Sequence record: MZ375356.1
Origin: Escherichia phage T4
Direction: 5' to 3' (one strand)
DNA length: 64,000 nucleotides
Both the position numbers and the translations under genes were made by a program. A model generated the notes under the pieces. The model saw nothing but the letters and a program-made list of their open reading frames with translations, did not search any database and was not told the origin of the DNA. Each line of letters starts with the position of its first letter. Position 1 is the first letter of the stretch. Positions 28,431 through 46,927 of the stretch are shown piece after piece.

Positions 28431-28632
28431 TTTTCACCTTTTTATTGATATGTCTTTTTCTATAGACAACTTTTTCTCGAGTTTCAAATTTATTCTTAGC
28501 AGTCATAGCTCGAGCCCATAATACAGCCACTTCTTTTGCCTGTAAGTTTAATTCACGAGCAATTTCAATGAATGACTTTCCAGACTCATGAAGAGTAAAC
28601 ACCACAACCTCAGTTCTCATAATCAATCTCAT
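28417..28632 (-). CDS. hypothetical small protein with helix-turn-helix-like segment (positional equivalent of T4 24.3)
   Basis: 71-aa ORF; SGKSFIEIARELNL resembles an HTH. Confidence 0.55.
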   Translation of the reverse strand: MRLIMRTEVVVFTLHESGKSFIEIARELNLQAKEVAVLWARAMTAKNKFETREKVVYRKRHINKKVKNGTV

Positions 28633-28700
28633 GTTATCGAGTTGGTGCCATTATATACATCATTTTCTGATTGTGTTTTGTGTGCTTTCAAAATGAAGAA

Positions 28701-28716
28701 AGGGGCCGAAGCCCCT
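28701..28716 (-). terminator. hairpin immediately downstream of the hoc remnant (minus strand)
   Basis: Minus strand reads aggggc-TTCG-gcccct followed by TTCTTCATTTTG. Confidence 0.55.
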
Positions 28717-29271
28717 TATGATAATGATACTTCATTAGAAGTAACGCTTAGTGCATCATAATCTGTCGCGGTTACTTGGGCTACGCATTTAATTCTTTTT
28801 ACTCCACTTGTAGTTGGAGTATAGCTAAATGTAGAGTTAGTTTCTCCACCAACTTGTGAATCATCTACATACCACTGATACGTAGCAGATGCTCCATCAG
28901 GTTGAGAAGCTAAGGCAGCAGTAAATTGAACTGGGGTTCCAATCACTCCAGCCGCAGGACTAGCAGGAGTTACGGCTAAGGTAGTCGTCTGTGTCTTATT
29001 TTTAACTGTGATAGTTGTTGTCGCTTCAGCCGTTTCCGGGCCTCCTTCAGAAAGTGTATTTGTTGCAACTACTTTAATAGTCTTTTGACCGGCAGGTCCT
29101 TTTAGCATAACTAAAAGTTGCTTCAGCTCCATCTTGTGGAACATTATCTACGCTCCAAGCATATGTAATAGTTCCGCCTCCAGTTTGACCACTGGGTGTA
29201 GCAGTAAACTGCTTAGTTTCATCAATAACCCCTGTAGGTGTTTTAGGAGTTATATCAACTGTAAAAGTCAT
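28716..29271 (-). pseudogene. hoc: outer capsid protein Hoc, frame-disrupted and lacking the C-terminal half
   Basis: Ig-like N-terminal ORF (29074-29271, MTFTVDITPKTPTG...) and a second Ig-like ORF (28716-29144) in another frame; 556 nt covers about 185 codons, versus about 376 aa for T4 Hoc. Confidence 0.8.
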
Positions 29272-33296: not shown

Positions 33297-33335
33297 TGTT
33301 ATTGGTTGTTATTGGATGTTATTGGATGTTATTGG
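33297..33335. repeat. four tandem 10-bp repeats (t/a)TGTTATTGG in the uvsY leader
   Basis: Direct reading: ttgttattgg ttgttattgg atgttattgg atgttattgg. Confidence 0.9.
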
Positions 33336-43534: not shown

Positions 43535-43722
43535 TAATAATCTATTGGTAAGAGAGTACGATATATTTCAAACTTTGGACCTTTTTCATAAGCATCAAAT
43601 GTTTCTGTGAATTTATTATAAGCATATGCATCTATAAATTCAATCATGATTTGTGATACAGAAGTAGAAACATCTCCACCTTCTTTTTGAGCCACGACAA
43701 TTGTTTCTAAGTAAGCTTTCAT
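43534..43722 (-). CDS. hypothetical 62-aa protein (positional equivalent of T4 alt.1)
   Basis: ORF between alt and the ligase gene; ATGA overlap with the ligase stop. Confidence 0.6.
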   Translation of the reverse strand: MKAYLETIVVAQKEGGDVSTSVSQIMIEFIDAYAYNKFTETFDAYEKGPKFEIYRTLLPIDY

Positions 43723-45182
43723 AGACCAGTTACCTCATGAAAATCACCAAATACATCTTCGAATGTATTAGCTTTAGTTTTATCTTCACGTAAACGAATC
43801 GCAATCGGAAGAAATAATTTAACGTAATCAGTGCGGCCATCAGATTTTAACCAACCGTTGCATTCGCACTCTAGAATTTTTCCAATATAATAATTTTGGT
43901 TTTCCATAATGCGAGTACGGTCAAGTTCATGCGATTTTACACCGGCTTTATCTTTTAAGCCTGAACCAGCATTTACCTTAATTTTTCCACACTCTGACTC
44001 AAGAATAAATCCACCCGCTTTAGTAGGGTCTTTACGGTGAGGATAAATTCCTACAATTTTTAAATCAACATCAATTACTTCTTTAAATTTATAAAGATTT
44101 TTTGAACGAGCATTTTCCCATAATCCATCGATATTTTTGAGAATAATACCTTCAAGACCTTGGTCAATATACTTTTTATAAATTACCTTAGCTTCATCTA
44201 GGTTATTTACTACCTGGTTTTCAATTAAAATTACTTTATCATATCCAGATGTCATTTGTTCTAGTTTAGAAAAACGTACATCATATTTCAAACGAAATGC
44301 AGGAAGACTGTATATTTCTACCAACGGGACATAATCCCAGACCTGAAACTTCATGCATTGTGCTTCTTTTTCAGAAATGGTTCCCTTTAAAGATTTATTG
44401 GCGATTCCATTAGAAGCAGTACGTGATTCAGCTACTTCGGCGAATTCTTTAGCTTTACTGTTTTCAGGATAAGCATCAAAAAGAAAATCTAGGCCTTCTG
44501 GCTCCTTTTTAACTTGCTCATGGTATACCAATTCGCCATCAATCAACACACCTTCTGGATGAATCTGGCGGGCTTCAGCGGTCATTTTAATTAACTCTTC
44601 CTTAAGAAGATCTAATCCTAGATATTCATTACCAGCTCGTGATAAAAGACGAACATCATCTAATTCATCACCTCTAACTTCAGCAAAACACCGAGCTCCA
44701 TCAGCTTTTAACTGAGCAAAGGCTGGAAATTTGATATTCTTATTAATGCCTTTTTCATCATAAGAACTTGCGAGCATTTGAGGTTGTTCAGGAATTAAAC
44801 CTGGCCAAACTTTGTTTGCAATAGATACTGAAGCACCACATTCAAGGTCTCGCATCATCACTCGACGCAAAACTTCAACATCATCTTTTTTACCATCGGT
44901 GATATATCCAGTTAATTCCTCAATTGCTGCATTTCCAGTCAATTTCCGAGTAGCTAATGTGAATTCAATGAAGTCAAGCATATCGGTAAGAGTCAACATT
45001 CCAAAACTCTGGGTAGCAATACCAGGTTTAGGCCATTTCTTGATATAATACTGTAACCCACGAGAATAAGTCAGACGATATACTCGTTTAAGCAATTCAT
45101 TATCTTTATTCTTTTCAAGAATTGCTTGCTTCTGTTTAGTTGAACCAATAGATGCTATTTCGTTCAGAATTTTAAGAATCAT
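43719..45182 (-). CDS. 30: ATP-dependent DNA ligase
   Basis: 487-aa ORF starting MILKILNEIASIGSTKQKQ; adenylation motif KADGAR. Confidence 0.95.
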   Translation of the reverse strand: MILKILNEIASIGSTKQKQAILEKNKDNELLKRVYRLTYSRGLQYYIKKWPKPGIATQSFGMLTLTDMLDFIEFTLATRKLTGNAAIEELTGYITDGKKDDVEVLRRVMMRDLECGASVSIANKVWPGLIPEQPQMLASSYDEKGINKNIKFPAFAQLKADGARCFAEVRGDELDDVRLLSRAGNEYLGLDLLKEELIKMTAEARQIHPEGVLIDGELVYHEQVKKEPEGLDFLFDAYPENSKAKEFAEVAESRTASNGIANKSLKGTISEKEAQCMKFQVWDYVPLVEIYSLPAFRLKYDVRFSKLEQMTSGYDKVILIENQVVNNLDEAKVIYKKYIDQGLEGIILKNIDGLWENARSKNLYKFKEVIDVDLKIVGIYPHRKDPTKAGGFILESECGKIKVNAGSGLKDKAGVKSHELDRTRIMENQNYYIGKILECECNGWLKSDGRTDYVKLFLPIAIRLREDKTKANTFEDVFGDFHEVTGL

Positions 45183-45448
45183 TGTTCATCCTTTAGAGTT
45201 TGGTTTACAGCTCTATTATAAATCAATTCATCATTAAGCTCAGTCAAAGACCTGTGGTACGTGGTTCTAACTTTATTTCCTTGCATCCAGTGCTTGATAT
45301 AAATGAAACCTTGCTCTACACATTTTTTAAAAATTCGTTCGTCTTTTTGAGCTCGGAATTCTGGATTGCATCTAAAAAATTGATTTACGTGACCGTAATC
45401 ACGTGTAGTATTACCTTCATTTTCATAAATAGTGTGAACAACAAACAT
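45179..45448 (-). CDS. hypothetical 89-aa protein (30.1 position)
   Basis: ORF with ATGA overlap to the ligase gene. Confidence 0.6.
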   Translation of the reverse strand: MFVVHTIYENEGNTTRDYGHVNQFFRCNPEFRAQKDERIFKKCVEQGFIYIKHWMQGNKVRTTYHRSLTELNDELIYNRAVNQTLKDEQ

Positions 45449-45786
45449 TAGAATGCTCCTTGGAAAATATTATCACCACAAGTAGGTCTATTATACAAAT
45501 ACTCTATACCGCCGGGCTTAATATAGTTCCATGTCTGAAACGGATGCGTCTGATATGGATGATATGGATTATAAGGATTAAATCCAGGAGTTCTCCAGGT
45601 AGTGTTCCAAGGAAAAGAATCGTTTTTAATCATCTTTTCAATTACATCTTTTATAGCTTTTTCACTATCAAAACTTTCTTTATTTTCCTTTGGTGAAAAA
45701 AGCTTATTCTCTACATCGTTCCATGTATAAACTCGCTGAGCAGTTTTTGGAATATTGTCACGCTCTCCTCGAGCCATCCAATACAC
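45448..45786 (-). CDS. hypothetical 112-aa protein (30.2 position)
   Basis: ORF; position only. Confidence 0.6.
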   Translation of the reverse strand: MYWMARGERDNIPKTAQRVYTWNDVENKLFSPKENKESFDSEKAIKDVIEKMIKNDSFPWNTTWRTPGFNPYNPYHPYQTHPFQTWNYIKPGGIEYLYNRPTCGDNIFQGAF

Positions 45787-45851
45787 AGGAACACGTAATA
45801 TTTCACTCGCGTGATCGCAGTGGTGAGCGAGATCGTCAATAACAAATTACG

Positions 45852-46097
45852 TTATTTCTCTTTTGCTTTTTTGAACAACTCTTCTTTTGAAGAATCATGA
45901 CTACACATCAGTACTTCTGAGAAAGCACCAGGAAAAAGAGCATTCAAATTAAATTGACGATTTAATAGAGCGTCAATAGAATCACCCAATGCTGTAACAG
46001 CAACAAAATTATAATCTTCTTTTAATTTGTTAATTACACAGAGCATCTTTATATGGAGACAAGTAACGAATAAAATCCGAACGATTGTATTTTTCAA
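45852..46097 (-). CDS. hypothetical 81-codon ORF with a non-ATG (TTG) start; may be spurious or an alternate-frame ORF
   Basis: Overlaps the tail of a longer open frame (46030-46272) in another phase. Confidence 0.3.
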   Translation of the reverse strand: MKNTIVRILFVTCLHIKMLCVINKLKEDYNFVAVTALGDSIDALLNRQFNLNALFPGAFSEVLMCSHDSSKEELFKKAKEK

Positions 46098-46272
46098 TTA
46101 ACTTGACGCCAAGTTCTTCATCACAGTTAAAGAGTTTACCAGGAGAAATAAATTTCTCATCTTGGATCATTTTTAAAATATGTTCTAACGGAAGATTATA
46201 TTTCTGAGCAAAATAAGGAAGGCCTGATTGCCAGCTTAAACATACTCCATCAATATCAGTTAATAGTAGGCT

Positions 46273-46734
46273 TCATAGAGAGTCTCTTAATAGGTTTAAC
46301 ACATCAATAAATTCAGCTTCGGTTAGTATTGTATCATCTTTTGTTAGACCACTAGCAATGCTGTGCTTCAAAACTTTTCCTTTCGAGGCTTGTAATGCAT
46401 CACGAAAGCCCTTGTTTTGAATCGCTGCTTCAAAATATGCATTTGTGTATAATTCTTTCCACGCCGGGGAGTATCTTGAAAACGGAACTCCAAGCCAAAA
46501 GAGGGTCCCACGGTCCTGAGCTCTAGCATAAGACCTTCCAGCTTGTTGGGCGGCAAGCCCGGATAACCCAAATATACGTTGTTGTTCAACATTTTTCACC
46601 TTACACCCTTGGAGGAATCCTTCAAGACCTCCAAATTGAATACCATCCATAACGAAAGGCCATTGGGCGAAATTACTTAATGCACATGATGGCCACCTAA
46701 AATTGCTTCTAATCTCTAACTCAGACATTTTCAA
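46273..46734 (-). CDS. NADAR/YbiA-like (DUF1768) domain protein
   Basis: 153-aa ORF; LSNFAQWPFVMDGIQFGGLEGFLQGCKV resembles the N-terminal NADAR signature (E. coli YbiA FSNFAAWPIKVDGKTW...EHYFQAQKF); assignment is by eye, not by search. Confidence 0.5.
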   Translation of the reverse strand: MKMSELEIRSNFRWPSCALSNFAQWPFVMDGIQFGGLEGFLQGCKVKNVEQQRIFGLSGLAAQQAGRSYARAQDRGTLFWLGVPFSRYSPAWKELYTNAYFEAAIQNKGFRDALQASKGKVLKHSIASGLTKDDTILTEAEFIDVLNLLRDSL

Positions 46735-46927
46735 TGCTTATAATTTCAACATCAGCCCAATGACCATAGCAAGGAAGACGAAATTCAACTGGCCAGTTAG
46801 GGTCCTTTTCTAATATAATAGACTCAACTTGTGGTTCTTCGTGTTCATCAGTATACGGATTTTTATCTGTTACTTTATATGTGACCTTAATGTACTGAAT
46901 TCCAAAAATCTTATTAATTATATTCAT
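46721..46927 (-). CDS. hypothetical 68-aa protein
   Basis: ORF; translationally coupled to neighbours. Confidence 0.55.
   Translation of the reverse strand: MNIINKIFGIQYIKVTYKVTDKNPYTDEHEEPQVESIILEKDPNWPVEFRLPCYGHWADVEIISIENV

Follow-up and report, generated by a model that had tools for sequence, protein, structure and literature searches.

The stretch of DNA analyzed here (64,000 nucleotides of Escherichia phage T4, record MZ375356.1; hereafter the window) aligned with positions 81494-146076 of the T4 reference NC_000866 at 99.6-99.8% identity, and its best match in the phage collection was OL964745.1 (99.7%). In the T4 annotation, the minus strand carries genes 30.4, 30.3, 30.2, 30.1, and 30 in this order. 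Gene 30.4 (46721..46927 of the window, minus strand), the upstream neighbor of gene 30.3, overlaps with its stop codon the ATG of the latter (ATGTCTGA), and gene 30.3, or adfN (anti-DarT factor NADAR), occupies 46273..46728 on the minus strand with 151 codons from its ATG to a TGA at 46273-46275. The native start of gene 30.2 (46256..46276, minus strand; ATG at 46274-46276) was located from the T4 annotation and from an alignment of the junctions in the window, T4, and Dhakavirus MX01. Between gene 30.2 and the downstream ligase gene lies an intact gene 30.1 (DUF3045; 45179..45448, minus strand), which matched PF11243 at 1.2e-64 and is annotated in T4, and the DNA ligase gene 30 itself (T4 gp30; 43719-45182, minus strand) was placed from the ORF list and the T4 annotation.

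The mechanical ORF that covers gene 30.3 (46273-46734, minus strand) consists of 153 codons from a TTG, contains LSNFAQWPFVMDGIQFGGLEGFLQGCKV, and ends at the TGA, while in the T4 annotation the gene begins two codons further in, with the ATG at 46728. Judged by its sequence, this ORF was identified as T4 gene 30.3/AdfN (UniProt NADAR_BPT4). Past the TGA, the same frame runs on through 80 sense codons (46030..46272, minus strand), reading SLLLTDIDGV...YKDALCN, and closes with a TAA at 46030-46032. The 153-aa ORF, its TGA, and the 80 sense codons that continue its frame as far as 46030 had all been pointed out in a preliminary description of this DNA, together with an overlapping 81-codon TTG-initiated ORF in another frame (45852..46097, minus strand), and all of them were found in the sequence as described. 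With the composition of this strand, the probability of at least 80 sense codons following a stop was approximately 0.003, the analytic value and the shuffles being in agreement, and this low value indicated that the stretch is a real coding sequence rather than a product of chance. In wild-type T4, the 30.3 frame past the TGA comprises only four sense codons, SLLF, before a TAA. The 2-bp deletion that opens this frame (see below) was also absent from the mutant clone T4_7t1 (OL964745.1), the Logan contig SRR22215992_141, and MX01, and the in-frame continuation past the adfN TGA exists only in the present variant.

Fold and Function of AdfN

The AdfN of the window corresponded to T4 gp30.3 minus one Arg (151 aa against 152 aa in the wild-type), and it matched the Pfam model PF08010 (Phage_30_3) over its entire length (positions 1-138 of 138) with 229.5 bits at a cut-off of 36, which is 8 bits lower than the score of wild-type gp30.3 (237.5 bits). 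The preliminary description had regarded this product as NADAR-like and had proposed a profile search against PF08719 (DUF1768/NADAR) as a check. This search gave no match even at E ≤ 10 in the Pfam scan, in which PF08010 was the sole match instead; a single-sequence phmmer search of AdfN against the PDB also gave none, and TIGR02464 reached E = 0.15 only. When a profile of the AdfN family (43 sequences) was used against the PDB, E. coli YbiA (2B3W) was the top sequence match (E = 0.0033), and the matched region, although a weak link, spanned the N-terminal SNF...DG...E..FQ..K motif, the same one to which the preliminary description had drawn attention.

The structure prediction that had likewise been proposed for the ORF product recovered the NADAR fold. 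The AlphaFold2 model of AdfN, built from an alignment of 43 homologues, had a pLDDT of 93.6 and a pTM of 0.89; a NADAR fold is defined by a helical core with two small flanking sheets. In a Foldseek search of the PDB, the top three matches were YbiA 2B3W (TM 0.69), the NADAR of G. lovleyi 8BAT, and the Phytophthora NADAR (PnNADAR) 8BAU, which are all three of the solved NADARs, and the remaining matches were noise (E > 2). Since both the profile-to-PDB and the fold searches recovered NADARs, the failure of PF08719 was set aside as a refutation. The literal test is a false negative because the phage clade has a Pfam model of its own, PF08010, and a rule of the kind "PF08719 hit or refute" would wrongly reject a true NADAR.

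Among the 43-44 homologues, E36 and H122 were invariant and K43 was conserved in at least 90%, and all three residues were present in the window protein, with H122 directly following the strand 119-121 in the model. The phage NADAR clade has been described as carrying, in the last strand, a His in place of the Glu or Asp of other NADARs (PMC11125620). The C-terminal helix (137-150 in the model) was complete, as the ORF reaches the native TGA; in RB69, the adfN of which carries a 1-nt insertion, truncation of this helix lowers the activity of AdfN (PMC11825919).

Except for one Arg that is lost in frame, the adfN gene of the window is intact. When it was aligned to the T4 reference, there emerged a 3-bp in-frame deletion (CGT of CGTCGT; 46573..46578, minus strand), which converts QQRRIFG into QQRIFG by the loss of Arg51 or Arg52 in the predicted helix 47-54, after the catalytic K43, and which also shortens the alternative-frame ORF 30.3' (46368-46592) by a codon. 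No gap was observed at the Arg51/52 column in any other of the 44 aligned sequences. The deletion was common to the window, OL964745.1, the protein T4583L_205, and the contig SRR22215992_141, and T4583L_205 and OL964745.1 are the only deposited entries with the exact 151-aa product.

The function of AdfN as a counter-defense enzyme against DarTG1 is already known. T4 gene 30.3 was renamed adfN in Nature Communications in 2025, where it was reported that T4 and T2 need the gene to plate on hosts with DarTG1 and that it is enough to rescue RB69; the purified AdfN strips ADP-ribose off DarT1-modified DNA, is guanine-specific and does not counter DarTG2, and is weakened by the E36A and K43A mutations, from which the roles of the catalytic Glu and Lys were deduced (PMC11825919). 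Independently, T4 gp30.3 was found to hydrolyze guanine-ADPr in vitro (Toxins 2024; PMC11125620). According to these studies, AdfN acts during infection as a NADAR-fold enzyme cleaving the ADP-ribose that the bacterial DarT1 toxin puts on guanines of the phage DNA, and this removal allows T-even phages to replicate on DarTG1-carrying hosts. This mechanism is the one published for the wild-type protein, of which the fold and the catalytic residues only were confirmed herein. The NADAR and counter-defense assignment made in the preliminary description was therefore right, as borne out by the fold, the YbiA profile match, the residues E36, K43, and H122, and the published function, and it had already been published.

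Gene 30.2 and the Stretch Behind adfN

In wild-type T4, gene 30.2 encodes a protein of 278 aa, begins with an ATG that overlaps the 30.3 TGA by 4 nt as ATGA, and reads MKPTILTDIDGVCLSWQSG... In the window, the alignment to T4 identified four 2-bp deletions in this gene, after positions 46261, 46035, 45852, and 45838. The first of them (TT of ATTTTA, codon 6; 46260..46263, minus strand) leaves the native frame with MKPTIN followed by a stop and puts residues 6-81 into the adfN frame, and it is because of this shift of 30.2 that the 80 sense codons seem to continue adfN. These codons were identical to residues 6-81 of T4 gp30.2 (LTDIDGV...KDALC), including HAD motif I (DxDG), and matched positions 16-91 of phrog_420 (E = 7e-27).

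The second deletion (about 46035/46036, minus strand) leads into the 81-codon ORF, the homologous part of which (VINKLKEDYNF...KKAKEK) corresponds to gp30.2 residues 82-143 and matched phrog_420 at positions 89-150 (E = 8e-22) with HAD motifs II and III. Between the third and fourth deletions (about 45852/45853 and 45838/45839, minus strand), six residues, YNVICY, lie in yet another frame, their first codon being altered here. The C-terminal part of gp30.2, from IDDLAHH... to the native stop (45448..45852, minus strand), matched phrog_420 at positions 173-266 of 267 (E = 1e-20) with HAD motif IV (DD), and the gp30.2 C-terminus is covered by a GTG-started mechanical ORF of 112 codons (45448-45786, minus strand). 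The overlapping 81-codon ORF and the 112-codon ORF thus result from the shifts of frame caused by the later deletions. The three fragments were collinear on phrog_420 and could be reassembled into T4 gp30.2 through the frames 0>1>2>0>1. No intact 30.2 ORF was found in the window, and its 30.2 is a null allele that cannot make the enzyme.

As for the nature of this enzyme, intact gp30.2 matched no model of Pfam or NCBIfam, and hence its assignment to the HAD family required the family motifs and the structure. Among 47 homologues, D8, D10, G11, K132, D150, and D151 were invariant and T96 was nearly invariant. The HAD motifs I-IV (DxD, T/S, K, DD), which these residues make up, all occurred in the DNA of the window, distributed among different frames. 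A profile of the gp30.2 family against the PDB gave a weak match to the mouse 5'(3')-deoxyribonucleotidase 2JAO (E = 0.04). The AlphaFold2 model of an intact homologue of 97% identity, P0075, had a pLDDT above 90 for residues 1-190, followed by a disordered C-terminal tail, and it contained a Rossmann-like HAD core. With this model, Foldseek retrieved 111 PDB matches at E ≤ 1e-3, the best 50 of which were HAD-superfamily proteins or engineered enzymes on HAD scaffolds, including several deoxyribonucleotidases. On the basis of these results, gp30.2 is assigned as an uncharacterized HAD-family hydrolase, probably a phosphatase. A literature search on gp30.2 found nothing specific.

All these results led us to consider it very probable that the locus consists of two adjacent and separately translated T4 genes, the second of which, frameshifted by deletions of a laboratory lineage, gives rise to the apparent extension of the first. 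The preliminary description had offered three other readings of the stretch behind the TGA, namely stop-codon readthrough, a separate small gene starting at MIQDEKF, and a longer ancestor interrupted by a nonsense codon. Readthrough or recoding of the TGA, which would yield a NADAR protein with an 80-residue C-terminal extension, has the open in-frame stretch itself as the sole point in its favor, and it is refuted by the comparison of genomes and must be regarded as exceedingly improbable: the stretch owes its existence to a 2-bp deletion lacking in wild-type T4, T4_7t1, SRR22215992_141, and MX01, the frame in wild-type T4 is closed by a TAA four codons past the TGA, and the added residues would form only the truncated N-terminus of a HAD protein, devoid of motifs II-IV. 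There is equally little chance of an independent gene at MIQDEKF (46030-46170, 46 aa), even though an ATG-started ORF is mechanically present, since its Met is the internal Met37 of gp30.2, its end is due only to the second 2-bp deletion, and it has no family of its own but matches the interior of phrog_420. The fused ancestor fails in that 30.2 is a separate gene having its own ATG at the ATGA junction. In fact, both T4 and MX01 show the arrangement that the preliminary description had itself named as contrary to its reading, a gene ending in TGA and, behind it, an independent gene with an ATG start, except that the latter had been expected to be small, whereas it encodes 278 aa in T4 and 212 aa in MX01.

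Origin of the Deletions

Compared with the T4 reference, the window contained 23 two-bp, 15 one-bp, and 5 three-bp deletions as well as a deletion of approximately 570 bp in hoc. The uncompensated frameshifts were all located in dispensable genes or intergenic DNA in the alignment to T4, the dispensable genes affected being segD, hoc, segE, uvsY.-1, 30.2, 30.6-30.8, 31.2, cd.2-cd.4, mobE, intron ORFs, and frd, and none of the 23 two-bp deletions fell within the structural-gene block at 1-25060 (P = 1.1e-5). Moreover, the alleles at the locus were nested: SRR22215992_141 has the CGT deletion of adfN and a SNP in 30.4 with 30.2 intact, OL964745.1 ("Mutant T4 clone T4_7t1") has in addition two of the 30.2 deletions, and the full set of four is present in the window, the first one at codon 6 being found in neither of the other two.

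[quoted passage not shown] The main text of that paper does not name 30.2 or 30.3 (PMC9825161). In the window, no enrichment of deletions at SpCas9 NGG cut sites was detected, the mean distance being 7.1 nt, compared with 6.9 nt for randomly placed positions, and the small deletions at most 1 nt from a cut site numbering 9 of 36 against 10.1 expected; CRISPR escape is no more than a possible origin of the small deletions. From the shared alleles and the names, we infer that the lesions mark a laboratory genome-reduction lineage of T4, and those in 30.2 would then be a mark of this lineage and not a natural feature.

Two other origins of the deletions have to be weighed against this one. If the 2-bp deletions were errors of sequencing or assembly, gene 30.2 of the actual phage would be intact, and the occurrence of many deletions within short repeats (TATA, ACAC, TTTT) as well as the lack of enrichment at Cas9 cut sites would fit such an explanation. 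We nevertheless consider it improbable, since the two-bp deletions avoid 25 kb of essential structural genes, the deletions are confined to dispensable genes, intron ORFs, and intergenic DNA, and the nested series extends over three independent assemblies; this bias in gene class, together with the nesting, is the pattern expected of heritable mutations accumulating under selection. A natural decay of 30.2 in a wild T4-like phage, which would make it an evolutionary pseudogene, has a precedent in that frameshifted accessory genes do occur in nature, as exemplified by the insertion in RB69 adfN (PMC11825919). It is highly improbable here, as the window is in essence T4, its alleles recur only in records labeled as mutant T4 clones, and four independent 2-bp deletions within one gene of 837 bp, accompanied by 19 in other dispensable genes and intergenic DNA of an otherwise T4-identical background, do not make a pattern of natural divergence. 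Heritable laboratory mutations filtered by selection are thus the best fit to the data.

The adfN-30.2 Pair and Comparison with Known Systems

By tblastn, gp30.2 was detected in 1439 phage records, and a single piece covered at least 80% of the query in 922 of these; homologues of AdfN occurred in 1510, and their hosts were distributed much as those of gp30.2. adfN and 30.2 lie side by side in T4, close relatives such as ime09, and Dhakavirus MX01, where the ATGA junction recurs and precedes MKPVILTDIDGV, the shared start at the junction in T4 and MX01 being MKP(T/V)ILTDIDGV. The 4-nt overlap in T-even phages suggests translational coupling of adfN and 30.2. Beyond the close T-even relatives, the adjacency was looked for and not found in Klebsiella phage JD18 or in Aeromonas phage 31, where 30.2 remains next to 30.1 and the ligase gene and no PF08010 gene flanks it. 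These two phages weaken the notion of a functional pair, and a dedicated AdfN-gp30.2 partnership is unlikely; the position of 30.2 beside 30.1 and the ligase gene there rather suggests a role linked to ligase or to nucleotides.

AdfN has been reported to need an unidentified T4 factor for full activity outside T-even infection (PMC11825919). It is very unlikely that gp30.2 is this factor; if it were, the phage of the window, with its null 30.2 and an AdfN short of one Arg, could serve directly as a test strain.

Taken together, nothing new was found at the locus, because AdfN is known and the extension past its stop codon is a by-product of laboratory frameshifts in 30.2, and for the same reason the observation carries little weight as a discovery. 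What it does illustrate is that engineered or serially passaged phage genomes can mimic recoding signals, and gp30.2, as a widespread yet uncharacterized HAD hydrolase, is worth an enzymatic assay.

Compared with wild-type T4 AdfN/gp30.3, the gene of the window has the same locus, the NADAR fold, E36, K43, and the clade-specific last-strand His, and differs by the loss of one Arg at 51/52. The cellular NADARs 8BAT (DarG1-type, from Geobacter lovleyi), 8BAU (Phytophthora), and 2B3W (YbiA) share with AdfN the fold (TM 0.58-0.69, normalized to the query) and the N-terminal SNF...DG...E..FQ..K motif, but only 15-17% identity. The third catalytic residue is His in AdfN, Asp in DarT1-linked NADARs, and Glu in YbiA (PMC11125620). 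AdfN lacks the N-terminal extension of DarG1 (PMC11825919). In addition, adfN is an orphan gene to which no DarT toxin is linked.

Among the CiPGr clones, T4_7t1 (OL964745.1) shares with the window the 3-bp adfN deletion and two of the four 30.2 deletions, the window having two more, and T4_583L has an AdfN product, T4583L_205, identical to that of the window. As for gp30.2, its family has the fold and motifs I-IV in common with HAD hydrolases such as the 5'(3')-deoxyribonucleotidases 2JAO, 2I7D, and 1Q92, and in contrast to the intact T4 gp30.2/phrog_420, the window gene is split over three frames by its four 2-bp deletions.

Small deletions and their distribution

Comparison of window 25447-63671, which corresponds to the 3' 60% of the window, with the reference T4 genome revealed 23 deletions of 2 bp, 15 of one bp and five of three bp. 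In essential genes, some of the one-bp deletions were offset by one-bp insertions close by, and the reading frame was thus restored. Frameshifts without such compensation were confined to intergenic DNA or to dispensable genes, namely segD, hoc, segE, uvsY.-1, 30.2, 30.6-30.8, 31.2, cd.2-cd.4, mobE, I-TevIII, I-TevI, and frd. No enrichment of the window's small deletions was observed at SpCas9 NGG cut sites.

Larger changes were also found in the window. A deletion of approximately 570 bp affected hoc (T4 110195-110766; window region 28482-28729), and a 27-nt segment lying between duplicated CTCGAG sequences near genes 24.2/24.3 (window 28482-28508) gave no alignment to NC_000866 around these genes. 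In the intergenic DNA adjoining uvsY and oriF, a 20-bp insertion (33307-33326) consisted of two additional copies, relative to reference T4, of the 10-bp repeat TGTTATTGGA.

The adfN allele and the order of lesions

The 3-bp deletion in adfN, which deprives AdfN of one Arg, also removed one codon of 30.3', an internal ORF in an alternative frame of adfN (46368-46592, minus strand), the product of which is 75 aa in reference T4 versus 74 aa in the window. The same Arg-less AdfN allele was identified alongside an intact 278-aa 30.2 in an independent read-set assembly (Logan contig SRR22215992_141, 677-1965). Because this contig pairs the two, the adfN deletion was the earlier event in this lineage, predating the 30.2 frameshifts.

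In the protein collection, AdfN (152 aa) fell into a 90%-identity cluster, that of the intact gp30.2 homologue P0075, which also contained gp30.2 proteins of 278-279 aa and had a gp30.2 protein as its representative. This co-clustering likely arose from fused or mis-called ORFs spanning the ATGA junction. Separately, the T4 NADAR construct is described as 'gp30.3; residues 1-208' (PMC11125620, Methods 4.2), which conflicts with the 152-aa length of T4 gp30.3.

Neighbourhood of 30.2 in distant phages

In the distant Straboviridae Klebsiella phage JD18 and Aeromonas phage 31, the HAD-like 30.2 still adjoins 30.1 and the DNA ligase gene, and the AdfN homologue is not adjacent to it. This arrangement hints that gp30.2 acts together with ligase or nucleotide metabolism rather than as a partner of AdfN.
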